The notes: a model not told the origin generated them from the sequence alone. A stretch of DNA of 64,000 nt from an uncultured Ruminococcus sp. (GCA_902763835.1 CACWTQ010000022.1:10133-74132); one strand, 5' to 3'. Shown: positions 305-62,533, numbered from the stretch's first letter. Made by a program: numbers and translations.

Positions 305-541
305 CATCACTGCAAGATAGGCAGGTTCTGTCGGCGGTCAGATGGTTAAGGAACTGTCAGAAAATAAGTTGAACATTTATACTTGTCTAATTTGCCCTGT
401 GTGTCGTTACAACACCTTGAAATACGTCAGTATTCCTGCGGTGTTGTCACAGAATAAATTATCCTGCGTCTAAATTGTTCAACTTATTTCCCAACAGTTC
501 CTAAGAGAATGATTGAGAGCCACGAGAATTCCGTAAAGTAA
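305..541 (+). pseudogene. decayed duplicate of the SASP 3' end, interrupted by MITE copy M1
   Basis: 305-349 plus 505-541 align almost base-for-base with 7-87. There is no N-terminal coding part (upstream in-frame TAG), CAG has become TAG at 318-320, and the downstream terminator hairpin is decayed. Confidence 0.8.
350..501 (+). mobile_element. MITE-like TIR element M1 (152 bp, full length)
   Basis: Ends are GGAACTGTCAGAAAATAAGTTGAACATTTA ... TAAATTGTTCAACTTATTTCCCAACAGTTCC. It is flanked by TAA/TAA (347-349, 502-504). The paralogous uninterrupted site at 41-56 has a single TAA (48-50). Confidence 0.9.
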
Positions 542-701
542 ATTGCTTTTAATTTAAATTTTTTAGATAATAAGAAATAATAAATATCATCTTATTTCTT
601 CTATATTGTTAATTCAGGATTGGTCACTTGATTTTAGTATATTAGCATATCTTATTGAAATAACAGGATATTTTTCAGTGAACTTTTTATGAAGTTTGCC
701 T

Positions 702-2138
702 TCATCTGTTCTGATTAATCGAATAAGTTCCTTTCATATAGCTGTCAAGGGCAACGTAATCCTTTAAATTCACCTGTGAATCTCCGTTAATATCCGCCGC
801 CGTCAGATAAACACCCTCTAACTCTGCTGCCTCAAGAATATGATTCGCCAAAACCGTCTTGTCAACCGAATTTATATTGCCCTCTCCGCTGAGTTCGCCG
901 TAAATTATAACACAAAATCGCTCTTTCGTTTCCGTATTCTCTATAATACTTCCCGTTCCAATTACACCGCTTTTCTTTATATTGCCCTTATTGTCATAGA
1001 ACGTGAAGCTTTCTCCCCGAATATTGTTTTTTATTTCTGCTATTGTGCTGCCCGGGGTAATTCCAGTTATAACATTATCATTATAATTTATATTGTAAAT
1101 ATCGGAGGATAATGTTTTATTTACATTTTGATTATTCTCACTTTGACTGCTGTTAAGCTCCGATTGTTTAAGCTTGACATCTTCCTCCGTAACAATCTTA
1201 ACCTCAACACTGTTTCCGTATTGATTGATACATATACATTTATTTCCCAATGATTTTATATAAGTTTCGGAGTTTATTTCTTCAACTGAAAATTCGCTAT
1301 CATTATTAACTGCCGTCAATGAATCCAACTTACTGACGAAAATATTATCTCCGATAACCGCCCCACCATGTATACCGTCAAAGCCGCTGTAAACTGCCGA
1401 AACATTTCCGTTACCGTAATTATAAATTTCGCCCCTGTCTGTTGAAAAAAATCCATTATTACCGGCATAAACTTTATTTGCAGATATATTAAAATCATAA
1501 ATTCTGTTATTGTCAATTATTTTCAACTTATTCTCATAAATTACATAAACTATAGCTCCATCGGGAGAGTTGGTTAAATTGATGATATTATATCCTACGG
1601 AGATTGTTTTTAAATATTTATAATTTGATGTATAAACCTCAACATTATTTTTAGATATCATATAATAATTCCCGTCAGAATCAACCGCAAATGTACCGTG
1701 AATTTCAGGTACTGCATTATTAATCACTCTTTGGCGGCTCATACCTGTTTTACAATTATAGCTGTCAATTATCGTATACAACAATACAACATCGCCTTTT
1801 GAGTTTAGTTCTTCTTCTTTACTAAAAAAATAAAAGGTATCATTTGCATACGCATACGTTTTATTATTCACATCAATATTGATTATATTTTCACAAGTAT
1901 TCAGGCTATTGTTAATCGTCACGATATTATAATTATTATTGACACTACATAAAATGTAAATATTATTATCATTACTATCGCTAAAAACGTCTAAAACTGT
2001 ACCACATTCATTCAAATACAGTACAGTTTTAGCTTCGCAAATTATTATTGAAAGAGCAATACAAAGAATACAAATCATTGACATCGAAATCAACGTGAAT
2101 AATCTTTTCAATTTACTTATATTTTTCGGCAGCCGCAA
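702..2138 (-). CDS. secreted/anchored dockerin-containing protein
   Basis: 478-aa ORF with an N-terminal hydrophobic segment. The C-terminus carries two F-hand dockerin segments (GEGNINSVDKTVLANHIL and DINGDSQVNLKDYVALDSYM). The start overlaps the rnhA stop by 26 nt; an alternative ATG lies at 2087. Confidence 0.7.
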   Translation of the reverse strand: MRLPKNISKLKRLFTLISMSMICILCIALSIIICEAKTVLYLNECGTVLDVFSDSNDNNIYILCSVNNNYNIVTINNSLNTCENIINIDVNNKTYAYANDTFYFFSKEEELNSKGDVVLLYTIIDSYNCKTGMSRQRVINNAVPEIHGTFAVDSDGNYYMISKNNVEVYTSNYKYLKTISVGYNIINLTNSPDGAIVYVIYENKLKIIDNNRIYDFNISANKVYAGNNGFFSTDRGEIYNYGNGNVSAVYSGFDGIHGGAVIGDNIFVSKLDSLTAVNNDSEFSVEEINSETYIKSLGNKCICINQYGNSVEVKIVTEEDVKLKQSELNSSQSENNQNVNKTLSSDIYNINYNDNVITGITPGSTIAEIKNNIRGESFTFYDNKGNIKKSGVIGTGSIIENTETKERFCVIIYGELSGEGNINSVDKTVLANHILEAAELEGVYLTAADINGDSQVNLKDYVALDSYMKGTYSINQNR

Positions 2139-2550
2139 CAGCTAATCTGTCACAGCGTTCGTTCTCGGGGTGACCTGCGTGTCCCTTAACCCAGACAATT
2201 GTCATTTTGTGCTTCTCACACAAATTAAGCAGCTCCTCCCACAAATCGGCATTCAGTGCAGGGTCGGTTTTATTTCTCATCCAATTATTGGCACGCCATT
2301 TTTTCGCCCAGCCCTTATTAATAGCATTACAAACATACTGAGAGTCACTGTAAAGTGTGACATCACAAGATTCTTTCAGGCATTTGAGAGCCTCCAGAAC
2401 AGCACTGATTTCCATTCTGTTATTGGTGGTGTTACTTTCACCTCCGCTAATCTCTTTTTCAGACTTTCCGTATCTTAGAATTGCACCCCAGCCACCCGGT
2501 CCGGGATTGCCTTTACAAGCCCCGTCTGTAAAAATTTCGACTTTTTTCAT
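2113..2550 (-). CDS. rnhA: ribonuclease HI
   Basis: Start set to ATG 2550, with GGAGGT 8 nt upstream. Motifs: KVEIFTDGACKGNPGPGGWG, NNRMEI, YSDSQY, VKGHAGHPENERCDRLA. Confidence 0.92.
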   Translation of the reverse strand: MKKVEIFTDGACKGNPGPGGWGAILRYGKSEKEISGGESNTTNNRMEISAVLEALKCLKESCDVTLYSDSQYVCNAINKGWAKKWRANNWMRNKTDPALNADLWEELLNLCEKHKMTIVWVKGHAGHPENERCDRLAVAAAEKYK

Positions 2551-2712
2551 GATATTACCTCCGTATAACTCTGTAAACATTATATCTTTTTTCCGAAAAA
2601 ATTTCAACTAATTTTATAAAAATGTTGAGTATTTTGCAATTATTTTACATATTATTCAAAATTAAAAAGCATATTCTATCGTTTGCCAACAGAATATGCT
2701 TTGAACTGTAAA

Positions 2713-3333
2713 TTATTTCAACAACCCTCTAAGTTTAATATAATCATATATTAAAACTACTGTTTCATCAATACCAATCTTTCCGCTGTTTATGGTAAGG
2801 TCGTGTGAATTAGCCTCGCCCCACTTCTTATCCATTGCATAAAAATTGTAAAAAGAAGCACGTTTTCTGTCGGTTTTAAGAATTTTTTCTCTTGCCTTTT
2901 CTCTGCTTAGACCGTCACGCTCAACAACTCTTTCAATCTTAATTTCCATATCAGCATGAATAAAAATCGAAATCAAGTTAGGGTTATCGCTCAAAACGCT
3001 GTCCGCACAGCGACCAATAATTATACACGGTTCTTCTTCCGCTATACTCTTAATCGTTTCGACCTGTGCCTGATACACCTTCTGATTGAGTGGAACTTCC
3101 GCAAACGACATCGGGTAAGCATCCATAGCAAGAGAAAAGAGCAAGCTCTTTGTAGGCATCTCATCATAATACTCAACAAGACTCTGCGACATACCGCTCT
3201 TTTTGGCTATCTCTGCCAAAAGACCCTTATCATAAAACTTAATGCCCAGTTTCTTAGCGAGTTTCCTGCCAATCTCGTGTCCACCGCTTCCGTACTGTCG
3301 GCTAATTGATATTACATAATTATTATTGCTCAT
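2713..3333 (-). CDS. cytidylate kinase-like family protein
   Basis: ATG at 3333 with AAGAGGTG upstream. The N-terminal P-loop-like SISRQYGSGGHEIGRKLAKKLG is typical of the cytidylate kinase-like (Cytidylate_kin2) family. Confidence 0.7.
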   Translation of the reverse strand: MSNNNYVISISRQYGSGGHEIGRKLAKKLGIKFYDKGLLAEIAKKSGMSQSLVEYYDEMPTKSLLFSLAMDAYPMSFAEVPLNQKVYQAQVETIKSIAEEEPCIIIGRCADSVLSDNPNLISIFIHADMEIKIERVVERDGLSREKAREKILKTDRKRASFYNFYAMDKKWGEANSHDLTINSGKIGIDETVVLIYDYIKLRGLLK

Positions 3334-3411
3334 AGTGAAAATCACCTCTTCTTAATGATATAAATTATTCTAACATTTTTCAGATGATTTTTCAATAGTT
3401 TTTGTAATATT

Positions 3412-5445
3412 TTATAAATTTTGTAGCAAGTGACCTACAAAGCTGTAATCGTTCATAAGCTTATTCTTCTCATTAGCAAACATTAACAGATATCCTAAAT
3501 ATATTGTAGTAAACATTGCTATTGAAGTGAAAACGTAAGATATAAGATAAGCTTTTTTTGATATACCTTTCAGAACGTTAAGGCAATCGAAAATAGCCAC
3601 GAACGATACCAATATTACAGGCATAAGAATATCTATAGTATATCTATAATGCGAACCTGCTTTACACATATCGATATAAGCCATTATAACCGGGGCTGCC
3701 GCAAATGTAATCATAAAGGCAGTTTTAAATTTATCTTTCTTTTTGAATATAATCGGAATAAGCAAAAATCCCCAAGTTATAGGATAATTGAAAATGCCCA
3801 TTGTTCTGCCGGTATAGCTGTATCGGTGGTATGTATCAAGAGTTTTGGCTTTAAGCTCAATATATGGGAACTTTGTGTTAATATTTGGCTGTTGAATAAA
3901 ATAATGATAAAATGTCGCAGGTATCATAGCAAGAGAGAATGTATTTGCTTTCGCAATGCTTACAGTTAACTGATAATTAAATCCAAACTCAAACGGATTT
4001 TCAAAGCGTTTATAATTATAAACCATTATCATAACCGCACCAATAGCTATAGGTGTACTGATAGAAACGACATAAGAGATTTTACGCTTCAATGTTTCTT
4101 CCTTGCTTGCAAGAACGCACACAGCAGGCACAAGTGCAGCCACACCATAGAAAAGGAGTGTGGGTCTTGAGGCAACAATCAGCACAACAGATACACCCGA
4201 TAAAACAAGAAAGGCAATTCTCTTTTTAAAGCTTGATTCATAGTAAGCTTTTAAAAGGAAATAAAGAAATGCAGCTGTCCACGTGATACCTGAAATCACC
4301 GCCATATAATAGAACTGAAATTCAAAAGCCGCAGCGAAAACAGCCGAACCGAACAATAACGTTATCTGCCCCAACACCGCAAGCACAAGCGGAACATCTT
4401 TACAAAAATGCTTTATCATTTCAATATACAACAGAGAAATAAATATTGCAGCATAAATACATAATAAGGTATTTGCAAACTCAATTGTCGGTACTTTTCC
4501 TGTAAAAATATTAACGGGGTAATATGCGGTAAATACCGGAGCAACACCAAAATACGAATAGAATTTTCCGTTATAGTAAGCTCTGTCCCAGAAGTTTCCT
4601 GTAGTACTTTTGGCATTGCGTTCACTTCTGTCATAAGGATTATCAAGAGCTTCAAGCTTGCTGATATCATAATCAAGGTCAAGATTCAGCTGACCCTTTT
4701 TAAAAGACTCAAAAAGCTGTCTGTACTGGTCTTCGCCGGAATAATTTTCGGACGGATATTCGTCAAGAAATTTTACGTCCTGATGATTGACAAGCATCAT
4801 AAATCCTAGGAAAACCATAAGACACATCACCGCAGTAAGTATTTTCATAAATAAATAATCATTGTCTTCAAGTGTAAATTTCCACACACCGTAAGCAATG
4901 ATAAATGCTGTTATGAGAATAAGTGAAAATCTTAAAAAGTGAAAGCTGAATTCGGGAGGCTTGTTCAGGCTGATTTCGGATATTATCAAATTATTTTCGA
5001 CATCGCCAACATTAATTTTTAAATCTTTTACTTTTCCAAAAGAACTAACATTAAAATAATTCTTTTCGTTAATGCCTGAATACATCAATACATACGAGGT
5101 ATTATAATCATATCCGTCTTCCTCATAAGCGAAGTTATCGTCAAGATAAGTGATATCCAAATGAACATATTCGTAATAATCTCCCGATAAAACCAAACAG
5201 ATATTTTTTAGTTCACAATTGAGGTTGCTTATCAGAATATTGCCGTCATTCAAAGTAATTTTATCACCGGTGTTAATATAAATTGCTCCGTCGCTGCTGA
5301 TATTCGGTGATTTAAAATCAACGTTGACCTCTTCCACACTGCTGAATATTATTCTTAAAGCAGAGTAGTTTGAAATAAGGCATTCCACAAAAATACAAGC
5401 TATAATTAATACAATAATTTTCACAATTCTTTTCTTTTTATCCAT
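3412..5445 (-). CDS. large polytopic membrane protein, possible GT-C-type glycosyltransferase
   Basis: 677-aa ORF with an N-terminal TM, a ~150-aa extracytoplasmic domain and then more than 10 hydrophobic segments. The function is not recognised. Confidence 0.5.
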   Translation of the reverse strand: MDKKKRIVKIIVLIIACIFVECLISNYSALRIIFSSVEEVNVDFKSPNISSDGAIYINTGDKITLNDGNILISNLNCELKNICLVLSGDYYEYVHLDITYLDDNFAYEEDGYDYNTSYVLMYSGINEKNYFNVSSFGKVKDLKINVGDVENNLIISEISLNKPPEFSFHFLRFSLILITAFIIAYGVWKFTLEDNDYLFMKILTAVMCLMVFLGFMMLVNHQDVKFLDEYPSENYSGEDQYRQLFESFKKGQLNLDLDYDISKLEALDNPYDRSERNAKSTTGNFWDRAYYNGKFYSYFGVAPVFTAYYPVNIFTGKVPTIEFANTLLCIYAAIFISLLYIEMIKHFCKDVPLVLAVLGQITLLFGSAVFAAAFEFQFYYMAVISGITWTAAFLYFLLKAYYESSFKKRIAFLVLSGVSVVLIVASRPTLLFYGVAALVPAVCVLASKEETLKRKISYVVSISTPIAIGAVMIMVYNYKRFENPFEFGFNYQLTVSIAKANTFSLAMIPATFYHYFIQQPNINTKFPYIELKAKTLDTYHRYSYTGRTMGIFNYPITWGFLLIPIIFKKKDKFKTAFMITFAAAPVIMAYIDMCKAGSHYRYTIDILMPVILVSFVAIFDCLNVLKGISKKAYLISYVFTSIAMFTTIYLGYLLMFANEKNKLMNDYSFVGHLLQNL

Positions 5446-5479
5446 ATATAACCACCTTTATATCATATTCAAAAGAAAA

Positions 5480-6436
5480 TTAATCCTCACTCTTGCTGCC
5501 GTCTTCGGGAAACATCTTATCCGATTCCGGCTTTCGCCTGCTTAACTGTCCCAAACGAAAGACAACAAATAAAATTCCCATAACGGAAAGTGTGATTCCT
5601 ATTCCCACAAACACGTACTTCGCCCTGCTATCTTTCAAATTCAGGTTTCCGATATCTTTTCCGCTGCCAAGCTGTGATATAGATGTTGTGTTGTTTTGGG
5701 AATCGGCAGTAATGTCATTATCGTAATAGTTATCGATTATTCCGGTATCCGATGTGGAATTCTTCTTATCATCTGAATAATCGGAAGAATAAACATAACT
5801 TCCGGTACGTGAATTATTTGCATTTGCAGACGAACTTACCGATACTTCACCGCCCGATTTGTACGACTTAGCTGAAGTGACAGATTTGGATTTGGACTCG
5901 GACAAGGCTGCACTGTCGCTTTCAGTTGAATGTGTTTCCTTTTCTGAGTTTTGGTCGCCTTTTTTAATTATCTCAATACCCACGTTATTTGATATTTTTA
6001 CCGATACATCATTTAAATTGTTATCAACCGCTTCGGAAACCTCAAACGCTATATTCTGCTTTGAAGATTTATTTCCGTTTTTTGACGTAAATTGCAGCTT
6101 AAACACATCACCATTTTTCAAGGTACTGTCAAACAATATTATAAAATCTATCTTACTGTTTTCGTTATTAAATTTTATTTCACCGGACTGAAGATTATCA
6201 ATATTCTTAAAGGATATATAATCCGAATTATAACTAGCTTTTATTTTGACTGCTTTAATATTCGTATTTGCTTCCGACGAAAATATAATATCAAATGAAT
6301 TTCCGATATTTACACTATAAGGAAATTTTGCTGTAAGCTCAAACTGCTCTGCCGACACTCCAACGGTATTAATCAGCATTATAAATATTATCAATGTTAA
6401 AGATAGAATAAGTTTTATTGGTCTTATTTTATTCAT
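5480..6436 (-). CDS. membrane-anchored surface protein with N-terminal cohesin-like domain
   Basis: Signal peptide (VGVSAEQ), a ~135-aa beta-rich domain, a Ser-rich linker, and a C-terminal TM plus basic stop-transfer (VFRLGQLSRRK). The cohesin assignment is tentative. Confidence 0.45.
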   Translation of the reverse strand: MNKIRPIKLILSLTLIIFIMLINTVGVSAEQFELTAKFPYSVNIGNSFDIIFSSEANTNIKAVKIKASYNSDYISFKNIDNLQSGEIKFNNENSKIDFIILFDSTLKNGDVFKLQFTSKNGNKSSKQNIAFEVSEAVDNNLNDVSVKISNNVGIEIIKKGDQNSEKETHSTESDSAALSESKSKSVTSAKSYKSGGEVSVSSSANANNSRTGSYVYSSDYSDDKKNSTSDTGIIDNYYDNDITADSQNNTTSISQLGSGKDIGNLNLKDSRAKYVFVGIGITLSVMGILFVVFRLGQLSRRKPESDKMFPEDGSKSED

Positions 6437-7287: not shown

Positions 7288-7370
7288 AAAAAAATTCCTT
7301 TCTAAAGGAAACCCCGACACTTATCGCCAAAGTATCGGGATTATTATTGTTATAATATATTATAGAACGA

Positions 7371-8720: not shown

Positions 8721-8741
8721 ATATACACCTCAAAAAACCGA

Positions 8742-11500: not shown

Positions 11501-11587
11501 TGGTGCCGGTGGCCGGACTCGAACCGGCACGGTATCGCTACCGGTGGATTTTGAGTCCACTACGTCTGCCAATTCCATCACACCGGC
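11501..11587 (-). tRNA. tRNA-Leu (anticodon CAA), type II with long variable arm, CCA encoded
   Basis: The reverse complement is GCCGGTG...GTGGA-CTCAAAA-TCCAC...GGTTCGAGTCC...CACCGGCACCA. Acceptor, anticodon and T arms all pair. Length 87 nt. Confidence 0.92.
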
Positions 11588-11591
11588 AAAA

Positions 11592-11684
11592 TGGCGGAGA
11601 GATGGGGATTCGAACCCCAGATACGGCGGAAACCGTATACATGATTTCCAATCATGCTCCTTCGGCCAGCTCGGACATCTCTCC
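11592..11684 (-). tRNA. tRNA-Ser (anticodon GGA), type II, CCA encoded
   Basis: The reverse complement is GGAGAGA...CATGA-TTGGAAA-TCATG...GGTTCGAATCC...TCTCTCCGCCA. Length 93 nt. Confidence 0.92.
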
Positions 11685-13052: not shown

Positions 13053-13177
13053 GGAACTGTTGGGAAATAAGTTGAACAATTTATACGCAGGATAATTTGT
13101 TCTGTGTTAGGCACAACACCGCAGGAATACTGACGTATTTCAAGGTGTAAATGTTCAAGTTATTTTCTGACAGTTCC
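13053..13177 (-). mobile_element. MITE-like TIR element M2 (125 bp, internal deletion)
   Basis: It starts with GGAACTGTTGGGAAATAAGTTGAACAATTTA and ends with ...TTATTTTCTGACAGTTCC. Flanked by TAA/TAA (13050-13052, 13178-13180). Confidence 0.88.
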
Positions 13178-23458: not shown

Positions 23459-23630
23459 GGAACTGTTGGGAAATAAGTTGAACAATTTAGACGCAGGATA
23501 ATTTGTTCTGTGTTAGGCACAACACCGCAGGAATACTGACGTATTTCAAGTGACGTATTTCAAGGTGTTGTAACGACACACAGGGCAAATTAGACAAGTA
23601 TAAATGTTCAAGTTATTTTCTGACAGTTCC
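23459..23630 (-). mobile_element. MITE-like TIR element M3 (172 bp, with internal 14-bp duplication TGACGTATTTCAAG)
   Basis: Both TIRs are present and it is flanked by TTA/TTA (23456-23458, 23631-23633). Confidence 0.88.
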
Positions 23631-38881: not shown

Positions 38882-39010
38882 AGGAAAAAGGCGGAAAGTG
38901 CAGTATTTTCTATAGTTTAATTTGATAATATCAATGATTTTAATGAAAAATTATATTGAAACAGTAATATTTAAAAAGCATAATGCAGATTTTTGGGGAG
39001 GTTAAAAATT

Positions 39011-39721
39011 TTGGAGATTGACGAGAAAAACAGAGTTAAAGAAAATCAAAGCAAGGGATTTATCGTTTTGTACAGAAGCTTGCTTGATTGGGAATACTCT
39101 GATGACGATGCGGTTTTTTCCTGTTTCGTAAAAATTCTTATGGCTGTGAATTATCAGGATAAGAAGTGGCACGGACAGACAATTGAAAGAGGAAGTCTGA
39201 TTTGCAGTATTGACACTTTATCGAGTTTAATTCACATAAAAAGGACTACGCTTAAAAGATGTTTGAAAATTTTAAGTGAGTGCGGAGCAATTTCCATAGA
39301 AGTTGTACCGAATAAATATCATAAAATCACTGTATCTAATTATTCCAAATATCAAGATATAGTTAGCCGAAAAACGACCGACAAGCCGACTAAAAGAGCA
39401 ACCAATAAGCCGACCGATAAAGCAACCGATAAGCCGACCACAACTAAACAATATAACAATATAACAAGTGGTGGTGTGTGTGCCCTACAGGCACACACAC
39501 ACACCACCACAGAAGAAGAAAAATCGGCTCTTCCGTCCGTCACGCCCTTGGGGGGCGAGCCGTCCGAGCCGCTTACACGTCGGGAATGGAGAACTTACTG
39601 CGAGCTTAAAGGCTATAACGAGTATCGTGCCGCCGAAGAGTGGATAAAGGTCAGAGGAGTTTTTTCGGAGGGTCAAAAGGCGAAAGTAAGAGAGTTCCTA
39701 AAGGAAAACGGAGAAGAATAA
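39011..39721 (+). CDS. winged-helix protein resembling phage/plasmid replication-organiser N-terminal domains, with TDKPT-type repeats
   Basis: Probable TTG start at 39011, 9 nt after GGGGAGG; the first in-frame ATG lies about 44 codons into the ORF (KILMAVN). GFIVLYRSLLDW...IERGSLICSIDTLSSLIHIKRTTLKRCLKILSECGAI, then KPTKRATNKPTDKATDKPT repeats. Confidence 0.5.
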   Translation: MEIDEKNRVKENQSKGFIVLYRSLLDWEYSDDDAVFSCFVKILMAVNYQDKKWHGQTIERGSLICSIDTLSSLIHIKRTTLKRCLKILSECGAISIEVVPNKYHKITVSNYSKYQDIVSRKTTDKPTKRATNKPTDKATDKPTTTKQYNNITSGGVCALQAHTHTTTEEEKSALPSVTPLGGEPSEPLTRREWRTYCELKGYNEYRAAEEWIKVRGVFSEGQKAKVREFLKENGEE

Positions 39722-39724: not shown

Positions 39725-39878
39725 GGAACTGTCAGAAAATAACTTGAACATTTATACTTGTCTAATTTGCCCTGTGTGTCGTTACAACACCTTGAAATAC
39801 GTCAGTATTCCTGCGTGTGCCTAACACAGAACAAATTATCCTGCGTCTAAATTGTTCAACTTATTTCCCAACAGTTCC
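39725..39878 (+). mobile_element. MITE-like TIR element M4 (154 bp, full length)
   Basis: Both TIRs are present with TAA/TAA flanks (39722-39724, 39879-39881). It starts 3 nt after the stop of the preceding gene. Confidence 0.9.
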
Positions 39879-39949: not shown

Positions 39950-39978
39950 TTGAAATCTCTTTGTATAAAGGGTATAAT
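39950..39978 (+). promoter_or_regulatory. sigma-A-type promoter upstream of proS, located between two MITE copies
   Basis: TTGAAA, a 17-nt spacer, then TATAAT. Confidence 0.55.
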
Positions 39979-39998
39979 TATAAGTTGTATAGTAATAA

Positions 39999-40147
39999 GG
40001 AACTGTCATAAAATAACTTGAACATTTATACTTGTCGAATTTGCCCTGTGTGTTGTGCCTAAGAGCCTGTTTAAAATCTTAGCGATACACGTCTTTTTGG
40101 CAAATTTTCCTGAGTCTAAATTGTTCAACTTATTTCCCAACAGTTCC
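39999..40147 (+). mobile_element. MITE-like TIR element M5 (149 bp, variant core)
   Basis: Both TIRs are present with TAA/TAA flanks (39996-39998, 40148-40150). About 45 nt of the core are replaced by unrelated sequence. It ends 6 nt before the proS GGAGG. Confidence 0.88.
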
Positions 40148-40166
40148 TAAATATGGAGGTACAAAA

Positions 40167-44438: not shown

Positions 44439-44542
44439 GGAACTGTCAGAAAATAACTTGAACATTTATACTTGTCTAATTTGCCCTGTGTGTCGTTACA
44501 ACACCTTGAAATACGTCAGTATTCCTGCGGTCCAACAGTTCC
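44439..44542 (+). mobile_element. MITE-like TIR element M6 (104 bp, right arm largely deleted)
   Basis: The left TIR and core are intact, but the right end is only TCCAACAGTTCC. TAA/TAA flanks (44436-44438, 44543-45). Its last base is part of the ispF TAG stop. Confidence 0.85.
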
Positions 44543-45009
44543 TAATCTATCAGGCAGACTGCCTGTGCCGATATTCCCTCTTCCCTGCCTGTAAAGCCTA
44601 ATTTCTCTTCGGTAGTCGCTTTTACATTCACACAGTCGATATCAATGCCGCAAACGTTGGCAATGTTCTCCCTCATTTGCTGAATATACGGTTTCATCTT
44701 GGGCTTTTGTGCAATAATTGTTGCATCTATATTTGATATTTTGTAACCTTTTTCACCAATTGCCGTGCGTACCTCTTTCAAAAGTACAAGACTGTCCGCA
44801 CCCTCGTATTTTGGGTCGTTATCGGGAAAAAGTCCGCCTATGTCGCCCAGTGCCGCCGCTCCCAGCAGAGAATCCATTATTGCGTGTAAAAGTACGTCTG
44901 CGTCGGAATGACCAAGCAAACCTAACGTATGAGGTATCTCAACACCGCCTATAATCAGCTTTCTGCCCTCAACAAGCTTATGTACATCGTAACCGTGACC
45001 TATTCTCAT
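44542..45009 (-). CDS. ispF: 2-C-methyl-D-erythritol 2,4-cyclodiphosphate synthase
   Basis: [23 protein letters not shown] and the [12 protein letters not shown]-type motif. Confidence 0.93.
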
Positions 45010-53792: not shown

Positions 53793-53804
53793 TTTTTTTT
53801 ATTT

Positions 53805-53897: not shown

Positions 53898-53928
53898 GGG
53901 ATTTTATAAAATTTAAAAATGACAATAT

Positions 53929-53963: not shown

Positions 53964-54018
53964 TTTATATTTTGTATAATATTTGTTAAAAATTTTTTCT
54001 TAAAAACCGTCTTCCCAC

Positions 54019-54108
54019 TATCACAATTAGGAACTGTTGGGAAATAAGTTGAACAATTTAGACAAGTATAGATGTTCAAGTTATTTTCTGACAGTTCCTT
54101 ACGCATTA
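54019..54108. repeat. module E copy split by MITE M7
   Basis: Left flank CTATCACAATTA plus right flank (TTA)CGCATTACAAA reconstructs CTATCACAATTACGCATTA, identical to 37534-37552. Confidence 0.8.
54030..54098 (-). mobile_element. MITE-like TIR element M7 (69 bp, TIR-only deletion derivative)
   Basis: GGAACTGTTGGGAAATAAGTTGAACAATTTAGACAAGTATAGATGTTCAAGTTATTTTCTGACAGTTCC with TTA/TTA flanks (54027-29, 54099-101). Confidence 0.88.
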
Positions 54109-54162
54109 CAAAACTTCCAGCCGCACCAATAACTCAACCTTGGAAAATAAATTTTCGATTTT

Positions 54163-54177
54163 CACAATTACGCATTA
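54163..54177. repeat. module E copy
   Basis: CACAATTACGCATTA. Confidence 0.7.
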
Positions 54178-54253
54178 ATTTGTTCTGTTGACAATTTCGT
54201 TCCGATGTACTATAATTATTGCTATAGAGATTACATTGATAAGGGTGATTAAT

Positions 54254-54952: not shown

Positions 54953-54970
54953 AAATTAATTTTTATATTA

Positions 54971-55111
54971 GGAACTGTTGGGAAATAAGTTGAACAATTT
55001 AGACGCAGGATAATTTGTTCTGTGTTAGGCACAACACCGCAGGAATACTGACGTATTTCAAGGGGGCAAATTAGACAAGTATAAATGTTCAAGTTATTTT
55101 CTGACAGTTCC
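54971..55111 (-). mobile_element. MITE-like TIR element M8 (141 bp)
   Basis: Both TIRs are present with TTA/TTA flanks (54968-70, 55112-14). It lies between the phosphatase and Fic genes. Confidence 0.88.
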
Positions 55112-55186
55112 TTAAGTAGTACCTTTGGGCAAAATGAAGTATGCACTGAGTGCAAATGTTGCTCTGTTGTGCGACAGGTGATTGCG

Positions 55187-55957
55187 ATGAAAGAACCCCC
55201 TTTTAAAATAACAAACGAAATTATAGATTTACTTGCCGAAGCGGCGGAACTTACCGGAAGAATCACAGTTACTTCTCGGCTTGATAAAAATCCCGTACTA
55301 CGAAGAAAAAACCGTATTCGTACGATTTACAGCTCGCTGGCTATCGAACAAAACGTTTTATCGGTCGAGCAGGTTACGGCGGTACTTGACGGAAAGCGTG
55401 TTATCGCACCGCCAAAGGATATTGAAGAAGTAAAAAATGCCTACGAGATTTACGAGCTTTTAGACACGCTGAACCCATACTCTTCATCGGATTTGCTAAA
55501 GGCTCACGGTGTGATGATGCGAGAACTTACTGCGGAATCGGGCGAATACCGTTCGGGGGCGGTCGGTGTTGTTGACAGCAGTACCGGAAAAATTATTCAT
55601 TTCGGCACGCTCCCTCAATATGTGCCGGGTGCTGTTGAAAATTTACTGAGTTGGGCAGAGGAAAGCACAGTGCATATGCTTATAAAAAGCTGTGTGTTTC
55701 ACTATGAATTTGAGGTGATACACCCGTTTGCGGACGGTAACGGTCGAATTGGCAGGCTTTGGCACACGCTTATGCTGTCGAAATGGAATCCTGTTTTTGC
55801 GTGGCTTCCCGTGGAATCTATGATACACAACCGTCAAGACGAATATTACAAGGTTATTCGATACTGCAACAATGTTTGTGATTCGACAGAGTTTATCGCT
55901 TTTATGCTTGATGTTATAAACGATGTTCTGAATGAAGCGGCAGACGGAATGTCATAA
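55187..55957 (+). CDS. Fic family protein
   Basis: ATG at 55187. Canonical [12 protein letters not shown] active-site motif and an N-terminal SSLAIEQN segment. Confidence 0.85.
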
Positions 55958-55993
55958 TAACAATCATTATGTTTTCTGTTATAACAATTAAAT

Positions 55994-56040
55994 TCCCATA
56001 TACTCAGGTTTTAACAATCTGAATATATGGGAATATTTTT
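55994..56040 (+). terminator. intrinsic terminator, bidirectional
   Basis: TCCCATATACTCAG...CTGAATATATGGGA followed by ATATTTTT. Confidence 0.7.
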
Positions 56041-56062
56041 ATGTATTTGTTAAAACAAATTG

Positions 56063-57238
56063 TCAATCTGAATTTTTCAATTCCTTAAGAAATGCTCTAA
56101 TTCTGTCAAGTGCCTCTTTAATATGCTGCACGGAGTAAGAGTAAGAAACTCTCACAAAGCCCTCTCCGCTTTCTCCGAACGCACTGCCCGGAACTACCGC
56201 AACATGCTTCGACATAAGCAGCTTTGAGGCGAACTCCTCCGAACTAAGTCCCGTTGACTTTATGCACGGGAACACGTAAAACGCACCTTTAGGCTCAAAG
56301 CAAGTTAATCCCATTTCGTTGAAAGAGTCCACAATAAGCCGTCTTCTCATATCGTATTGTTCACGCATTTCTTCAATGTCAAAATCGCCGTTTTGGAGTG
56401 CTTCTATAGCCGCATACTGTGCCGTTGTCGGAGCACTCATAATTGCGTATTGGTGCAGCTTTGTCATCTGGGAGATAATCTGCTTGGGACCCAGAGCGTA
56501 ACCCAATCTCCAGCCTGTCATTGCATATGCCTTTGAAAATCCGCTGACAATAACAGTTCTCTCTTTCATACCCTTGACCGATGCAAAAGAGGTAGGCTTC
56601 ATTCCGTAGGAAAGTTCGGCATAAATCTCGTCCGACAATACAATTAAGTTGTGCTTTTCGATTACAGGGGCAATTGCTTCGTAATCCTCTTTACTCATTG
56701 ACGCACCTGTCGGATTGTTCGGGTACGGCAAAATCAGGAGCTTAGTTTTATCGGTAACCTTTTCCTCGATTTCCTCTGGGGTAAGACGGAAATCATTTTC
56801 CGCTTTGGTTTCGATTATTACAGGTGCAGCACCTGCCATAACCGTAAGCGGCTCATAACATACAAAAGACGGCTGAGGTATAAGCACCTCGTCACCCTCT
56901 TCAACAAGACAGCGTAATGCACCGTCAATTGCTTCCGAACCGCCGACTGTAACAAGTGTATCCGTATCGGGGTTATACGTTACACCAAAACGACGTTCAA
57001 AGTAGCTGCAAATCTCAACTCTCAGCTGGGAAAGACCTCTGTTAGGGGTGTACCACGTTTTACCCATTTCAAGCGATTTAATGCCCTGTTCCCTAATGTG
57101 CCAAGGAGTATGGAAATCAGGCTCACCGATACTCAGCGAGATTACGTTATCCATTTCATTTGCAATATCAAAAAACTTTCTTATACCCGAAGGCTTAGTA
57201 TTCTTAATTCTATTATTTAAAAAACAATCATAATCCAT
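56063..57238 (-). CDS. class I/II PLP-dependent aminotransferase (AlaT/AspC-like)
   Basis: ATG at 57238 shares one base with the TAA of the upstream Lrp gene (TAATG). SGIRKFFD and the SGFSKAYAMTGWR lysine motif are present. Confidence 0.85.
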   Translation of the reverse strand: MDYDCFLNNRIKNTKPSGIRKFFDIANEMDNVISLSIGEPDFHTPWHIREQGIKSLEMGKTWYTPNRGLSQLRVEICSYFERRFGVTYNPDTDTLVTVGGSEAIDGALRCLVEEGDEVLIPQPSFVCYEPLTVMAGAAPVIIETKAENDFRLTPEEIEEKVTDKTKLLILPYPNNPTGASMSKEDYEAIAPVIEKHNLIVLSDEIYAELSYGMKPTSFASVKGMKERTVIVSGFSKAYAMTGWRLGYALGPKQIISQMTKLHQYAIMSAPTTAQYAAIEALQNGDFDIEEMREQYDMRRRLIVDSFNEMGLTCFEPKGAFYVFPCIKSTGLSSEEFASKLLMSKHVAVVPGSAFGESGEGFVRVSYSYSVQHIKEALDRIRAFLKELKNSD

Positions 57239-57723
57239 TATAAAATACATTCCCTTTCGTCCTTATCGGAGCTTAAATTCTGCATATCAACCATATTCGA
57301 CTTATACTTTGTGAGAATAAAGTGCGTGCTGGCGGAAAGCACCGAATCAAGCGGCGACAATCTTTTTGCAACAAACATTGCTATCTCCTGAATGGAATGA
57401 CCCTTAACAAAAACTGCAAGGTCGTAATTTCCTGCCATAAGGTAAACACCCTCAACCTCGTCAAAAGCCATAACACGCTCGGCGATATCGTCGAAGCCTT
57501 TGTCACGCTTTGGGGCAACCTTAAGCTCGATAAGGGCACGAACCTCCGAACCGGGAACTTTCTCCCAGTTAATGAGAGCCTTGTAACCGCAGATAACGCC
57601 GGAGTTCTCAAACTCCGTAATCTGCTTTCTTACCTCTTCCGGGGTAATATTGAGCATTGACGCAAGTTCATTATCGGTGAACTTGCAGTTGTCTTGTAAC
57701 AATTCAAGTAAACGGTTTTTCAT
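57238..57723 (-). CDS. Lrp/AsnC-family transcriptional regulator
   Basis: An N-terminal HTH (LELLQDNCKFTDNELASMLNITPEEVRKQI) and a C-terminal RAM domain. Confidence 0.85.
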   Translation of the reverse strand: MKNRLLELLQDNCKFTDNELASMLNITPEEVRKQITEFENSGVICGYKALINWEKVPGSEVRALIELKVAPKRDKGFDDIAERVMAFDEVEGVYLMAGNYDLAVFVKGHSIQEIAMFVAKRLSPLDSVLSASTHFILTKYKSNMVDMQNLSSDKDERECIL

Positions 57724-57756
57724 AATATTCTCTCCTTTTATATTACATATGACTAC

Positions 57757-59229
57757 CTATTTTGCAGATTCTTTCGGATTACTTTTCTTTTTAAACAAAC
57801 TCAGTGATGAAAAAGCATAAAGTTTAAAATTTTCTCCCTCATACCTTTCCATAAAAACTGTTGCGTAACCCAAAATAAGCCAGAAAAAAGTTGTCATAAT
57901 TGTGATATCGTAAATCAAAGTTTTCTCAAAAAAAGCGTACACGCAATAAGCGGCAATAAACGATGCAAGGCACGGGAAAATGTCGCTTCTGATAGTCGGC
58001 TTTACGGTGAAAATGGTTTTTACCATTCTCCAGCCTAGGCATATCGTAAATCCCATAAAGAAGAAGAAACCAATAAAACCGGAACAGACTATAATTGTAA
58101 GATAGCCGTTGTGGAGGTCGCTGTACTTCATCTTATTGTTGTTGTAGCGGTTGCCGTAAATAGTGATGTTTCCCTTGCCCACTCCCAAAATCGGGTGGTT
58201 CTTGATAACGTTCACACCCTGTTTGAACAGCTTTATTCTGCCGCTGTCTATATTTTTATTTTGATGTTCAAACGTAGTAATTTGGTTCAAAGCGTCGTCG
58301 CTGTCTTCAAAGGTATTGGCTGTGTCTTCGGGCGAACTCATTGTATAAGTTGTTCCGGTCTGAGTAACATATCTCAAACTGAAGCTGAGTGCTGTCACTG
58401 CCACAAAAATAAGGATAAGAGCAAGTGCTTTCTTGAACAGCAATTTGAAATTAATCTCCTTACCGCCAAAAAGACGATAACATATATACCCAATTGTATA
58501 ACAGACAATAATAAGAATTGCCGCATTTGAATCCGTAAGGAAAATAACAAACAAATTAACCGCTGCCGAAATCATAATAACTGCACGGCGAGATTTTGTG
58601 AGTGGTTTTCCTGTAACATTTTTGCAAAAGTCGCCCTGCCACAGTATATGACAGCCGAACGCAGAACAGAAAGAGGTAAAAGCCATAAGATTAGGGTTAA
58701 AGTAAACACCTGTAAATCTATTCTCGTATACAACAAGATAACCGAAAATATAAGTAATACTTTTACCTATTGTGTAAAGTGTGATAAGACTTATAATATT
58801 AAGCACAAGTGACAGCCAAAGCAAAATATTACAGAGTATATATATTTCCTTATAGATTTTTTTTCTGCCGTCCTCGGTATGAGCTTCCGTATGAAGACCG
58901 TAGAACATAAAAAATATCAACGGTAAAAATATCACGTAGCCGACACTTTCCCAGATTCCCGAGCTATACCCTCTCACGAAAACAGTGACAATATTTGTTG
59001 CTATAAACAGCAGCAGCCACCCATAGTAATTGACTTTTTTTATATTATTTTTGTATACATATCTTTTAACAAAAAGGGTTAAACCCCAAATAAATATGAA
59101 CACTGCACAGACAATTGCAGGTACACTGATGTAACCGATTTGACACAATATCAAATCAATAACAAACGCAATTCTAAATACCGAAGTATTGTTACGAAGA
59201 GCATCTAACCGTGTGTTATAATGCTCCAC
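57757..59229 (-). CDS. O-antigen ligase/polymerase-like (Wzy_C) polytopic membrane protein
   Basis: 490 aa with about 12 TMs and a large loop carrying HNGYL, typical of the O-antigen ligase family. Confidence 0.6.
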   Translation of the reverse strand: MEHYNTRLDALRNNTSVFRIAFVIDLILCQIGYISVPAIVCAVFIFIWGLTLFVKRYVYKNNIKKVNYYGWLLLFIATNIVTVFVRGYSSGIWESVGYVIFLPLIFFMFYGLHTEAHTEDGRKKIYKEIYILCNILLWLSLVLNIISLITLYTIGKSITYIFGYLVVYENRFTGVYFNPNLMAFTSFCSAFGCHILWQGDFCKNVTGKPLTKSRRAVIMISAAVNLFVIFLTDSNAAILIIVCYTIGYICYRLFGGKEINFKLLFKKALALILIFVAVTALSFSLRYVTQTGTTYTMSSPEDTANTFEDSDDALNQITTFEHQNKNIDSGRIKLFKQGVNVIKNHPILGVGKGNITIYGNRYNNNKMKYSDLHNGYLTIIVCSGFIGFFFFMGFTICLGWRMVKTIFTVKPTIRSDIFPCLASFIAAYCVYAFFEKTLIYDITIMTTFFWLILGYATVFMERYEGENFKLYAFSSLSLFKKKSNPKESAK

Positions 59230-59294
59230 TCTATCACCGCCTTTCGTTCATAATACCGTCAATTTAATGACAATATTATATTCAAAGCATATGG

Positions 59295-59981
59295 TTACGT
59301 GCCGATTTTAATCACCGTTAAAATCATAACGTAAAAATCATAAAAGAAGTTAAACTTTTCTATATAATTAAGATTGAATTTCATTTTTTGCGGAAGGATA
59401 TCTTCGATATACGCCTTTTCCACATCATCGGCTTTTTCGAGAATTTCCTCTTCATTGCGGAACTGTATGCTTGTCATAGATGTTATACCTGCCGGCATAA
59501 GCAAGGTTGCATACATTTCGGTGGTATATTTTTCAACATATCTTTCGACTTCGGGTCGAGTGCCGACGAACGACATATCCCCCGAGAGGACGTTGAAAAG
59601 CTGAGGCATTTCGTCAAGTCTGAACTTGCGAAGAACGTGACCGACCTTAGTAATACGGCTGTCCGTGCCGGCGGTGACCTGAGAATTTTTGCTGTTATCG
59701 TTCACAAACATAGTACGGAACTTAAAAATTTTAAATATCTTGCCTCCCGAAGTAACACGTCTTTGTCTGAAAAAAACAGGACCTTTCGAGTCGGCTTTTA
59801 CCAAAACCGCAACCACCGCCATAGGAATTGCCAGAATGATTAAAAGACTCACGGCGAAAATTATATCAAAAAATCTTTTAAAGAATAAATCAATTTTTTT
59901 CTTGGAAAGGATTTCATAATATTTTTTCACGTCATCATTTTGCATTTCGGGTGGAAGAGATGAAAATTTAGGCAATAGCAT
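59295..59981 (-). CDS. undecaprenyl-phosphate sugar phosphotransferase (bacterial sugar transferase family)
   Basis: ATG at 59981, 12 nt after AAAGG. Motifs: DEMPQLFNVLSGDMSFVGTRP. Confidence 0.85.
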   Translation of the reverse strand: MLLPKFSSLPPEMQNDDVKKYYEILSKKKIDLFFKRFFDIIFAVSLLIILAIPMAVVAVLVKADSKGPVFFRQRRVTSGGKIFKIFKFRTMFVNDNSKNSQVTAGTDSRITKVGHVLRKFRLDEMPQLFNVLSGDMSFVGTRPEVERYVEKYTTEMYATLLMPAGITSMTSIQFRNEEEILEKADDVEKAYIEDILPQKMKFNLNYIEKFNFFYDFYVMILTVIKIGT

Positions 59982-60000
59982 TTTTATCACAAACCTTTTG

Positions 60001-60248
60001 CGGACAACGTCCGTTTTTTTAATACGTGAAGACAGTCCTTTTTTAATACGTGAAGACAGTCCGTTTTTTTAATACGTGAAGACAGTCCGTTTAAAATCTG
60101 GCTTTACGAACCCGACCGATAGTTGATTTTTGGCGAGAGTTTTAGGTTACTCTTTACATAGTTTATTTTTTGGCGAGAGTTTCAGGTTACTCTTTACATA
60201 GTTTATTTTTGGGCGAGAGTTTCAGGTTACTCTTTACATAGTTTATTA
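60001..60248 (+). repeat. mosaic repeat locus: A, B x3 (24-26-bp units), C, D x3 (40-bp units)
   Basis: GCGGACAACGTCCG (60001-14); AATACGTGAAGACAGTCC at 60022, 60046 and 60072; ACCCGACCGA (60111-20); TGGCGAGAGTTT(T/C)AGGTTACTCTTTACATAGTTTATTTTT at 60131, 60171 and 60211. Confidence 0.9.
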
Positions 60249-60330
60249 TACACGTTTTCGGAAATTTTTTCAACTGTTTTTTAATATGCTGAAATATTTT
60301 ATTTATACTTTGTCTTTTATAGGTTTAGGG

Positions 60331-60358
60331 CAAAAAAGAGTGCGGAATATCCGCACTC
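60331..60358 (-). terminator. intrinsic terminator
   Basis: The minus strand reads GAGTGCGG-ATATT-CCGCACTC followed by TTTTTTG. Confidence 0.65.
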
Positions 60359-60439
60359 CCTTTCATATATACTCACGTCTAATAACATTTACCACTGTTC
60401 TCTCTTCTTCTTTAACTCTTCACTCTTCTCTGAAAATAA

Positions 60440-60510
60440 GGAACTGTTGGGAAATAAATTGAACAAATTATCCTGCGTCTAAATTGTTCAATTTATTTCC
60501 CAACAGTTCC
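60440..60510. mobile_element. MITE-like TIR element M9 (71 bp, right-type TIR at both ends)
   Basis: GGAACTGTTGGGAAATAAATTGAACAAATTATCCTGCGTCTAAATTGTTCAATTTATTTCCCAACAGTTCC with TAA/TAA flanks (60437-39, 60511-13). Confidence 0.85.
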
Positions 60511-60663
60511 TAATTTAAATTCAGCTGTAAATTTTATTTTATTGTACCATATATTTTAGAAATTTTCAATACATTTTATGTAAATAAAAAACGCTGCCGA
60601 CCGCATTGGGAAGACAACGTTTTTCTTATACTTTTAATATAGGTTATTATTGTCGAAAATTAA

Positions 60664-61575
60664 TCAAAACATATTCATAAGACCATTAAAGTTAAAGCTG
60701 TCGTAATAATCCTCAAAATCATATCCGTAATTTGAAATGGAAAGTATCTGCCATTTTGAACCGTCCTTGCAGAGGAACAATGTCATATTGCTTTCGTACT
60801 TATCCGAACCGCTCTTGCCGTTTACAGTAATATCCGCAAGCATAAGACCGTTTACTTTTAATTTCTGTCCGCTTAATCTCGAAATAATTTCGTTAAACTT
60901 TTTTAGCTCGTCCTTATCGGCTTTTTCCTCGGCTGTAATCTCATATTCGACATTATATTTCGAGCCTAGTTCATACTCGAAATTTTCAAAGAATTTTTTT
61001 GATTCATTTTCAAATGATTCCTCAAGAATCTGCTCGGTAAACTCATTGAAATCTCCGCCTACCTGCTTCTTAAGTTCACCGTCCTTTGCAATATTGGCTG
61101 TTTCAAAGAAATAAACTACCGCATTCTTCAAGCTCTTGGAAACCTCGGCAGACATAGCCTCGCCGTCACAGTCGATGAATGCTGTCATATATCTGTCGAT
61201 TGTATTGTCGGGGTTTGAGCCAATAACCGAAACAACACCGATAATGATTGCAGCTACCAAAATCAAAGCAACCACGGGAATTGCAATCACAATAATATTG
61301 TTTTTATTTTGCAGCAAGCCTTTCAGACCGCCGACGTTCGGAGCGGCAGACGTACCGCCGGGAGGATTAAATCCGCCGTTGGTGGGAGTGGGGTTCGGAT
61401 TAAAAACCGGAGTAACAGGCTGAAAGCCGCTGTTGCCGACAGGGGGAGCGGGATTCGGTATATTTTCGCCAAAACCGGCAGGCTGCTGAGGCTGTGGCTG
61501 ATTCTGAGCTGCTCCGCAGTTTCCGCAAAATATGGAATTATCTGAAAGTTGTGCACCGCAATTTTTACAAATCAT
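60664..61575 (-). CDS. zinc-ribbon / P-rich / single-TM protein with C-terminal ectodomain
   Basis: ATG at 61575 with AGGAGG upstream. MICKNCGAQLSDNSIFCGNCGA, then a TM. It is a paralog of the next gene (shared FETAN and KW.I.S motifs). Confidence 0.65.
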   Translation of the reverse strand: MICKNCGAQLSDNSIFCGNCGAAQNQPQPQQPAGFGENIPNPAPPVGNSGFQPVTPVFNPNPTPTNGGFNPPGGTSAAPNVGGLKGLLQNKNNIIVIAIPVVALILVAAIIIGVVSVIGSNPDNTIDRYMTAFIDCDGEAMSAEVSKSLKNAVVYFFETANIAKDGELKKQVGGDFNEFTEQILEESFENESKKFFENFEYELGSKYNVEYEITAEEKADKDELKKFNEIISRLSGQKLKVNGLMLADITVNGKSGSDKYESNMTLFLCKDGSKWQILSISNYGYDFEDYYDSFNFNGLMNMF

Positions 61576-61600
61576 ATTAATACCTCCTGAGTTACTTTCA

Positions 61601-62365
61601 TTATTTTTCATCAAAGCTGTAGATTTTCCACTTATTCTCATCTTCGAGAGTAAGTATCAATTCAATATTTGCTGATGATTTTTTACCGTCAAGGGAAGCT
61701 GTAATTTTATAATCTACAATTCTAGCATCTTTGATTATTTCGCTTTTTCTGTCGTAGTCCAAATCGTTCATAAAATCATTATATTCGTCATCAGACATTA
61801 TATGATTGTCAACGATTTTAAATTTCATATCGTAATTAGTGCCGCCGAGCTCTTCATCAAAATAGCTGAAAACTCCCTCAAGCTTATCTTTTGCTTCTTT
61901 ATCCAACTCTGCATAATTATTATCGGGGTTCGCCGTTTCAAAAACAACCATACTATAGTTATTTACTATTTTCGCATAATCATAATCGTCAAAATGACGT
62001 TTGAAATAATTCAAAACAGCACGATATCCCGTATACTCATAAATCACCGTACAGCCAAGAAAAAGAACCGCTGCAAGCAACAGAGATATCACTATTTTCA
62101 CAATTTTTCCCACTGAGTTGTTATTCTTATCCGCACCCTGAATATACTGATAATTCACCTGCGGATTGGCAGCGGCATTATTATAGCCGTAACCTTTATC
62201 GTCTGTGTTGCCGCTGTAATCGTTGAAAAAATTAATTTCCTCGTAATTACCGCTGCCGTTATTCGGTGAATTAGTTGCAGTTGTAAAAAATGCACCGCAG
62301 TTACTGCATCTGACTGCGTTATCATCATCATTGCGTGTTCCGCACGCACCACAAAACTTAGCCAT
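61601..62365 (-). CDS. zinc-ribbon / single-TM protein with C-terminal ectodomain (paralog)
   Basis: MAKFCGACGTRNDDDNAVRCSNCGA, then a TM and an ectodomain. Confidence 0.65.
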   Translation of the reverse strand: MAKFCGACGTRNDDDNAVRCSNCGAFFTTATNSPNNGSGNYEEINFFNDYSGNTDDKGYGYNNAAANPQVNYQYIQGADKNNNSVGKIVKIVISLLLAAVLFLGCTVIYEYTGYRAVLNYFKRHFDDYDYAKIVNNYSMVVFETANPDNNYAELDKEAKDKLEGVFSYFDEELGGTNYDMKFKIVDNHIMSDDEYNDFMNDLDYDRKSEIIKDARIVDYKITASLDGKKSSANIELILTLEDENKWKIYSFDEK

Positions 62366-62464
62366 AATTTTAACTTCTAATCCTATTTTCTTTGATATGA
62401 ATTTCGGGAGTACTCCCTGCCAAAGCTTTGGCAGGGAATTTTAACCCCGATTTCTTTCGGGTAA

Positions 62465-62533
62465 GGAACTGTTGGGAAATAAGTTGAACAATTTAGACAA
62501 GTATAAATGTTCAAGTTATTTTATGACAGTTCC
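62465..62533 (-). mobile_element. MITE-like TIR element M10 (69 bp, same deletion derivative as M7)
   Basis: It has the same breakpoint as M7 (..AATTTAGACAAGTATAAATG..) and TAA/TAA flanks (62462-64, 62534-36). Its last base completes the TAG stop of the protease gene. Confidence 0.88.

Follow-up and report, generated by a model that had tools for sequence, protein, structure and literature searches.

Ten miniature inverted-repeat elements with a 3-bp target duplication in an uncultured Ruminococcus genome, and their probable parentage in the ISAzo13 family

A stretch of 64,000 nucleotides from an uncultured Ruminococcus sp. (GCA_902763835.1, CACWTQ010000022.1:10133-74132; "the window" hereafter means this whole stretch) contains ten short non-coding repeats which, in our opinion, almost certainly form a true family of MITEs (miniature inverted-repeat transposable elements), inserted with duplication of a 3-bp target. 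The parent family of these MITEs is most probably that of the ISAzo13 insertion sequences (ISs), a conclusion to which we would attach a probability of roughly 0.85. An earlier note, made from this DNA alone, had already described the repeats as MITEs and had looked for their parent in the IS5 superfamily or in PIF/Harbinger; this attribution is not supported, since the autonomous elements found to share both the termini and the TAA/TTA duplication are of the ISAzo13 family. Apart from its parent family, the element is an ordinary textbook MITE in all tested respects.

The ten copies, 69-172 bp in length, lie exactly at the coordinates previously given. They are listed here with their target site duplications (TSDs), the two ends of the element being called A and B.

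M1, 350-501, plus strand: 152 bp, A-end first; TSD TAA at 347-349 and 502-504.
M2, 13053-13177, minus strand: 125 bp, internally deleted on the A side; TSD TAA.
M3, 23459-23630, minus strand: 172 bp, the longest copy; TSD TTA.
M4, 39725-39878, plus strand: 154 bp; TSD TAA.
M5, 39999-40147, plus strand: 149 bp, of a subfamily whose interior differs; TSD TAA.
M6, 44439-44542, plus strand: 104 bp, B side truncated; TSD TAA.
M7, 54030-54098, minus strand: 69-bp minimal copy, about 34 nt of A-end and 35 nt of B-end; TSD TTA.
M8, 54971-55111, minus strand: 141 bp; TSD TTA.
M9, 60440-60510, strand undefined: 71-bp near-perfect palindrome with two B-type ends; TSD TAA.
M10, 62465-62533, minus strand: 69-bp minimal copy; TSD TAA.

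Together these copies amount to 1,206 bp, that is 1.9% of the window, and none of them contains a transposase gene. A search of the window with the end 18-mer GGAACTGTCAGAAAATAA (at most 3 mismatches) recovered 19 termini for a chance expectation of 0.07, the twentieth being absent through truncation of the right end of M6 (44439-44542), and the ten copies, used as an nhmmer profile, led to no additional copy anywhere in the window; number, positions, sizes and inverted ends are as had been reported. The ends are in all ten copies imperfect terminal inverted repeats (TIRs) of about 31 bp, starting GGAACTGT, with the consensus GGAACTGTyrGrAAATAAsTTGAACA (over about 26-31 bp), and the two arms of the element are homologous to one another over about 65 nt. 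Identity between copies is 93-100% in the main subfamily (eight copies, M5 and M9 being left out) and 97-100% among the five longest copies. Nested internal deletions, as seen in the alignment, account for the size heterogeneity, and M3 is longer than the rest because CTTGAAATACGTCA, in the middle of the element, is present as a short tandem duplication.

The flanks of every copy are a trinucleotide in direct repeat, which is TAA seven times and TTA three times. If a length of 3 bp is assumed, direct repeats are seen in 10/10 copies, against 0/10 with 2, 4 or 5 bp or with the boundary shifted by one base, so that only a 3-bp TAA/TTA duplication fits the data, just as had been proposed. Of all trinucleotides in the window, 5.1% are TAA or TTA, and twenty such flanks would occur by chance with p of about 1e-26. 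The comparison of filled and empty sites, on which the earlier note had made its claim depend, gives the same answer, for two empty sites could be found and each has a single TAA. The first, orthologous to the M10 site, is located in L084 (loci retrieved in our searches carry L numbers), a contig from a relative with 92% nucleotide identity that is syntenic with the window from 52 to 64 kb and has zero MITE copies. It reads CGGAT-TAA-GGCTTCTC (longer reading ...CGGAT-TAA-GGCTTCTCTTTAGG), where the window has CGGG-TAA-[M10]-TAA-GGCTTCTC (longer reading ...CGGG-TAA-[M10]-TAA-GGCTTCTCTTTAGG). The second is in the window itself:

5-123, plus strand: paralogous empty site for M1, sharing about 92% identity with 304-349 joined to 505-577; one TAA only at the site (48-50).

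This paralogue, made up of the last 80 nt or so of a gene running off the start of the window and of about 40 nt downstream, is uninterrupted (CAGATGGT-TAA-GAGAATG, i.e. GATGGT-TAA-GAGAATG), in contrast to the filled M1 site; the repeat copy that bears M1 has a TAG where the first copy has CAG, and represents the end of a gene, duplicated and degenerate. In L084 the M8 site carries an extra indel of about 24 nt and hence is not a clean empty site, and the relatives with 72-78% nucleotide identity (L091, L094, L199, L201 and L204) are too diverged for base-precise empty sites.

The case for an ISAzo13 parent begins with a protein-blind scan for a degenerate 18-mer of the TIR in 185,579 genomes, one per species. 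Among the matches listed (the first 80 loci), most are chance matches or sister MITEs, and one, L043, is an autonomous element, in a metagenome-assembled genome (MAG) of Vicinamibacterales. The left end of L043, TAA-GGAACTGTCAGAAAATAACT (longer reading TAA-GGAACTGTCAGAAAATAACTCTTCC), is identical to the A-end of the MITE at 20/20 positions, with a transposase gene 60 nt further on, and its right end is GGAGTCGTCAGAAAATAACT...-TAA (longer reading GGAAGAGTTATTTTCTGACGACTCC-TAA). The transposase gene (region of about 900-4370 in L043) is split between ISVDT and KKKELVG by a row of three tyrosine-recombinase genes that looks like a recombinase-in-trio element; once rejoined, the transposase gene codes for a protein of 404 aa that matches Pfam PF07592 (DDE_Tnp_ISAZ013) with E=1e-142. 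ISAzo13 copies were also detected by tblastn in four complete plasmids (Mesorhizobium, Skermanella, Anabaena and Methylomonas). These copies are about 1.32 kb long, start with GGA or GAG and have direct TAA or TTA flanks, and the family is found on plasmids of Actinobacteria, Proteobacteria and Cyanobacteria. Direct TAA or TTA flanks are likewise present on L043, L103, L105, L107, L108, L148 and L197. The MITE itself gave chance-level matches only when compared with plasmids by blastn, and scans of viral contigs yielded 0 matches.

Metagenomes were searched with a pattern in which C-terminal WNY codons are followed 25-55 nt later by TTATTTYCYRACRRYTCC, and 80 of the 88 stretches obtained were analysed. 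Right ends of the ISAzo13 type (GGArYYGTYAGrAAATAA) are present in 71 of the 80, nearly always followed by TAA or TTA; about 30 loci are complete ISs of 1.28-1.35 kb with both ends identified, and in 31 there is an open reading frame (ORF) that spans 370 aa or more and contains ISVDTKKKE and PPGTSKWNKIEHR, motifs of the family. Nine candidates (L111, L123, L126, L127, L139, L149, L152, L162 and L184) were rejected as ISs, being instead a coding region of a human-gut bacterium in which a B-end-like 18-mer, GGAACTGTTGGGAAATAA, occurs by chance, with CTT as flank and no second end. At the positions that the pattern left free (20 T, 25-26 CA and 28-29 TT), the consensus of 51 distinct IS ends agrees with the MITE, and the closest IS end, GGAACTGTCAGGAAATAACTTGAACATT, has one mismatch with the A-end of the MITE over 28 positions (the L130/L131 end, 27/28). 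Autonomous copies of low GC content exist as well: L148 (1,292 bp) has GGAACTGT ends, TTA/TTA flanks and a PF07592 protein, and L197 and L198 (1,297 bp) have TTA/TTA flanks and the ends GGAACTGTTAAAAAATAAC. The locus of the latter two (L197 1-12864 / L198) seems to be a mobilisable element, with a NikA-like protein, a relaxase and many helix-turn-helix (HTH) genes, and the ISAzo13 copy adjoins there transposase genes of the IS91 and DDE_Tnp_1 types. A homologue search with the L148 transposase returned 120 relatives, nearly all on contigs of 1.3-2 kb without taxonomy, and led to no autonomous copy from the rumen. The long copies found with these termini around a DDE transposase, for which the earlier note had suggested a search (L043, L148, L197), are all of the ISAzo13 type, and in the host lineage no autonomous copy was found.

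We think, however, that several points against an ISAzo13 parent should be acknowledged. First, the metagenome pattern contained an ISAzo13 protein motif, and therefore shows that ISAzo13 elements have these ends but is silent on other families. Second, the IS whose end is most similar belongs to high-GC organisms, which leads us to regard the TIR match as family-wide conservation and not as a direct parent-offspring relationship. Third, no PF07592 gene was found in the window, in contigs of the same species or in the loci of other MITE-bearing MAGs, and the plasmid search gave no ISAzo13 copy on any Firmicutes plasmid. Finally, of about 29 full-length metagenomic ISs, 13, some of them with perfect TIRs, have unequal flanks (TAA at one end, TTA at the other). 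These unequal flanks may be a real property of the family, but are likely due to assembly chimeras or to recombination across multicopy repeats, because two assemblies from the species of the window disagree in the same manner at one MITE. Indeed, the left flank of a diverged MITE upstream of the M4-peptidase gene differs between L096 (1330-1531; flanks TTA/TTA, with a scaffold gap inside the element) and L097 (1940-2097; flanks TAA/TTA). The ISs with unequal flanks are mostly on contigs that barely exceed the length of the IS, and neither the closed plasmids nor the window show any unequal flanking repeats.

The earlier note had stated that the window contains no transposase, and this is so as far as tested: no transposase domain was detected in the 38 largest or flanking ORFs of the window, ISAzo13 queries gave no tblastn match there, and the IS5-type motif is absent from it as well. 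When tblastn was extended to about 970 kb of loci, the sole ISAzo13 match was L043, from an unrelated MAG. Pairs of TIRs 300-4000 bp apart in the compared loci turned out to be MITEs flanking ordinary genes (HTH proteins) and no ISs, and the ORFs downstream of single TIR matches included no transposase except that of L043. As to the autonomous partner in the host itself, it could reside in another part of the genome, could have been lost, or could have been delivered on a mobile element.

The most serious alternative, which we nevertheless judge quite unlikely, is that the MITEs were mobilised by a transposase of the IS5 superfamily, from the groups with 3-bp TNA/TWA duplications that are related to PIF/Harbinger. 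Some IS5 groups, and PIF/Harbinger, typically show GG/GA ends and a TWA duplication of 3 bp, and the MITEs do have such a duplication; Zator transposons produce 3-bp TSDs too. The canonical Harbinger has 3-bp TSDs (PMC12730594), and ISAzo13 is the prokaryotic counterpart of the eukaryotic Zator (PMC5718144). The TWA duplication does not discriminate, therefore, because it is common to ISAzo13 and to IS5/Harbinger. The transposases themselves speak against IS5: all the autonomous elements recovered with these ends (L043, the metagenome loci, L148 and L197) are ISAzo13, no IS5-type (DDE_Tnp_1) element with the MITE termini was found (judged on transposase type, not on IS5 reference termini), and a regular expression for the IS5-type catalytic E-motif was negative over 916 kb of TIR-bearing and related loci. 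The cyanobacterial Nezha/ISNpu3 was rejected as well, the direct repeat of Nezha (CATTATCTAC; PMC6042816) being 10 bp long as against the 3-bp duplication of the MITEs.

A different kind of explanation would make the repeat a structured element encoded by the host (a repeat resembling REP/BIME, the repetitive extragenic palindromes and bacterial interspersed mosaic elements, or a regulatory RNA hairpin) and spread through recombination or gene conversion. It draws on the fact that the copies form very stable hairpins. Computed folding indeed brings the nested inverted repeats into a single long hairpin, as the earlier note had held, with -50.3 kcal/mol and z -6.6 for M3, z -7.7 for M5 and z -10.8 for M9 (the B/B palindrome). 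It can further appeal to the strictly intergenic position of the copies, often inside operons, one of them being between a promoter-like site and the ribosome-binding site of proS, and to the Rfam covariance models, none of which matched a MITE copy in the window scan (where tRNAs alone reach the gathering score), leaving room for a novel RNA. We nevertheless consider this explanation very unlikely, given the exact 3-bp duplication in 10/10 copies, the single TAA of two empty sites and the identity of the MITE termini with the ends of transposase-bearing ISs. The truncated M6, moreover, no longer folds (z about 0) and yet persists, and the copies are in both orientations relative to transcription, a mixture that argues against a selected RNA function. 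As for segmental duplication of larger blocks in place of independent insertions, which the earlier note had named as the other outcome that would tell against it, it can be practically discarded because the flanks of the nine copies other than M1 are mutually unrelated, homology between copies ends precisely at GG...CC, and M1, although it does sit within a duplicated segment of about 120 bp, has a sister segment without the element, so that its insertion is later than the duplication.

Contigs of the same species (99.2-99.9% identity) have a copy at each covered site, M4 to M10, with no insertion polymorphism at these seven sites; the sole difference is an internal-deletion polymorphism at M6, where one contig has a full copy of 158 bp versus 104 bp in the window. 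The MITE has no copies in the syntenic regions of the 92% relative L084 or of the relatives at 72-78% identity, and the same family, with more than 90% identity, is present among the matches listed in three other MAG species (L015/L018, L025 and L077). The 93-100% identity of the copies, together with their absence from a 92%-identical relative, argues for recent amplification. The previous description of the family as probably recently active is therefore supported as regards amplification but not as regards current activity, in view of the seven sites without insertion polymorphism. The description as non-autonomous and trans-mobilised is upheld by the same observations and by the two empty sites. 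The data indicate a recent burst in a lineage of rumen Acutalibacteraceae ("Ruminococcus") MAGs, fixed in the sampled strains and followed by decay via internal deletions.

In the mechanism that we propose, an ISAzo13-type DDE transposase (DDE_Tnp_ISAZ013), supplied in trans, would bind the TIRs of about 26-31 bp and integrate the element at TAA or TTA via a staggered cut of 3 nt, whose repair would produce the trinucleotide duplication that all copies display. A master copy of about 158 bp was amplified recently in the rumen Acutalibacteraceae lineage, as the identity of the copies and their absence from the 92% relative show, and the family then decayed by internal deletions to derivatives of 69-141 bp, one such deletion being the one that is polymorphic between strains.

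All copies are intergenic, often between co-directional genes, and several touch a stop codon. M4 directly follows the TAA stop of ORF 38993-39721. The last base of M6 together with the TA of its TSD forms the TAG stop of ispF (44542-45009, minus strand), and the terminal base of M10 together with the TA of its TSD forms the TAG stop of the M4-peptidase gene, for which the ancestral stop, as seen in L084, is TAA. Since the element starts with GG and inserts into TAA/TTA, TA + G regenerates a TAG, and insertions at or beside stop codons can be tolerated; hence the location of copies at the ends of genes and within operons. Between M4 and M5 there is one further feature:

39950-39978, plus strand: promoter-like site TTGAAA-17-TATAAT, 11/12.

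In this region (39950-40166), M5 ends 19 nt upstream of the ATG of proS, just before the GGAGG ribosome-binding site, and may thus be carried as a hairpin of 149 nt in the 5' untranslated region (UTR) of proS; more generally, the layout of the genes suggests that copies in operons are probably co-transcribed as long RNA hairpins. At M8, an ATG inside the A-end (55085-55111) reads outward through the TTA duplication into a Fic-domain ORF (55085-55957), which explains why the Fic-domain gene is called at 290 aa or at 256 aa, depending on the contig; the call is 146 aa in the MITE-free L084.

The neighbouring genes (type-I proS, murT, aroA and genes for dockerin and leucine-rich-repeat proteins), together with contigs encoding identical proteins, assign the window to the rumen "Ruminococcus"/Acutalibacteraceae MAG lineage; two adjacent tRNA genes (11504-11684, minus strand) are the sole Rfam matches in the window. 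The sites of MITEs coincide with differences in gene content between the window and L084: L084 5884-7064 and 12900-15233 correspond to window 60370-60528 (M9) and 53973-54187 (M7), and L084 has a dockerin-protein gene instead at the M9 site and three extra genes (DUF4186, aldo-keto reductase and cNMP-binding, i.e. cyclic-nucleotide-binding) at the M7 site. No contig records were found for the protein adjoining M3.

The correction of the parent from IS5 to ISAzo13 offers a testable pair, namely an L148-like transposase and the 69-bp minimal element, and it adds direct evidence that ISAzo13, like its eukaryotic Zator relatives, takes TAA/TTA as target and duplicates 3 bp on integration. For rumen metagenomics the family matters too: several contigs stop within these repeats or differ from one another there, which accounts for broken contigs and chimeric joins. 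With a copy every 6 kb or so, such elements could be a major cause of MAG fragmentation, of errors in calling the starts and stops of genes, and of variation between strains. The high genome-wide abundance suggested in the earlier note is an extrapolation from the window.

The family described here has sister families in other Clostridia. A sister MITE family of about 100-105 bp is present in Acetatifactor and other Lachnospiraceae (L002-L079, e.g. L029 2346-2448), on many contigs per genome, with the ends GGAACTGTCGGAAAATAACTG... / ...CAGTTATTTGTAGACAATTCC and TTA flanks, and mini-elements of 46-58 bp, with little beyond the two TIRs, are found in other Bacillota (L056, L047, L014). These sister families have in common with ours the terminal 20 nt or so (GGAACTGTCrGAAAATAAC) and the TAA/TTA flanks, whereas their interiors are unrelated and their size and host family differ; judging from their sequences, they seem to have been born as MITEs independently of one another, from related ISAzo13-type ends, in gut Clostridia. 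Among the 13 papers found to mention ISAzo13 in the literature searched, MITEs figure in no title or abstract. One could go further and imagine, as a single and rather doubtful proposal, that a MITE superfamily of the ISAzo13/Zator type, recognised here for the first time, extends across gut and rumen Clostridia. It would comprise independently born families in Acutalibacteraceae, Lachnospiraceae and termite-gut Bacillota that share an end of about 20 nt; its hosts, seemingly devoid of resident autonomous copies, would have seen amplification through a transient, horizontally acquired transposase (carried, for instance, by a mobilisable element such as L197/L198), and copies in 5' UTRs or at operon junctions (proS, ispF) might have gained a role in mRNA stability or translation.

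How do these MITEs compare with known systems? ISAzo13 ISs (in plasmid records, the annotated examples are ISScl2, ISRop2 and ISNpu10) resemble them by the TIR consensus GGArYYGTYAGrAAATAA..CA.TT, with identity of up to 20/20 and 27/28, and by the 3-bp TAA/TTA duplication. They differ in being about 1.3 kb long with a gene of 390-410 codons, where the MITEs have 69-172 bp and no gene, and in having TIRs of about 25 nt, where the arms of the MITEs are homologous over a much longer distance, about 65 nt. Outside prokaryotes, the counterpart of ISAzo13 is Zator, whereas PIF/Harbinger, also eukaryotic, is related to IS5 and not to ISAzo13; the likeness to Tourist/mPing of plants, which belong to PIF/Harbinger, is accordingly confined to the target duplication (the direct repeat of mPing is TAA), with no sequence similarity. 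The Correia and RUP elements duplicate TA. The classical bacterial MITEs in general (Correia/CREE of Neisseria, RUP of S. pneumoniae, ERIC and cyanobacterial elements) have a short target duplication, are intergenic and are co-transcribed with neighbouring genes (PMC3184786, PMC10969869). The present family is like them in being small, non-coding and multicopy, with TIRs and hairpins, and differs from them in its parent family and in its target duplication.

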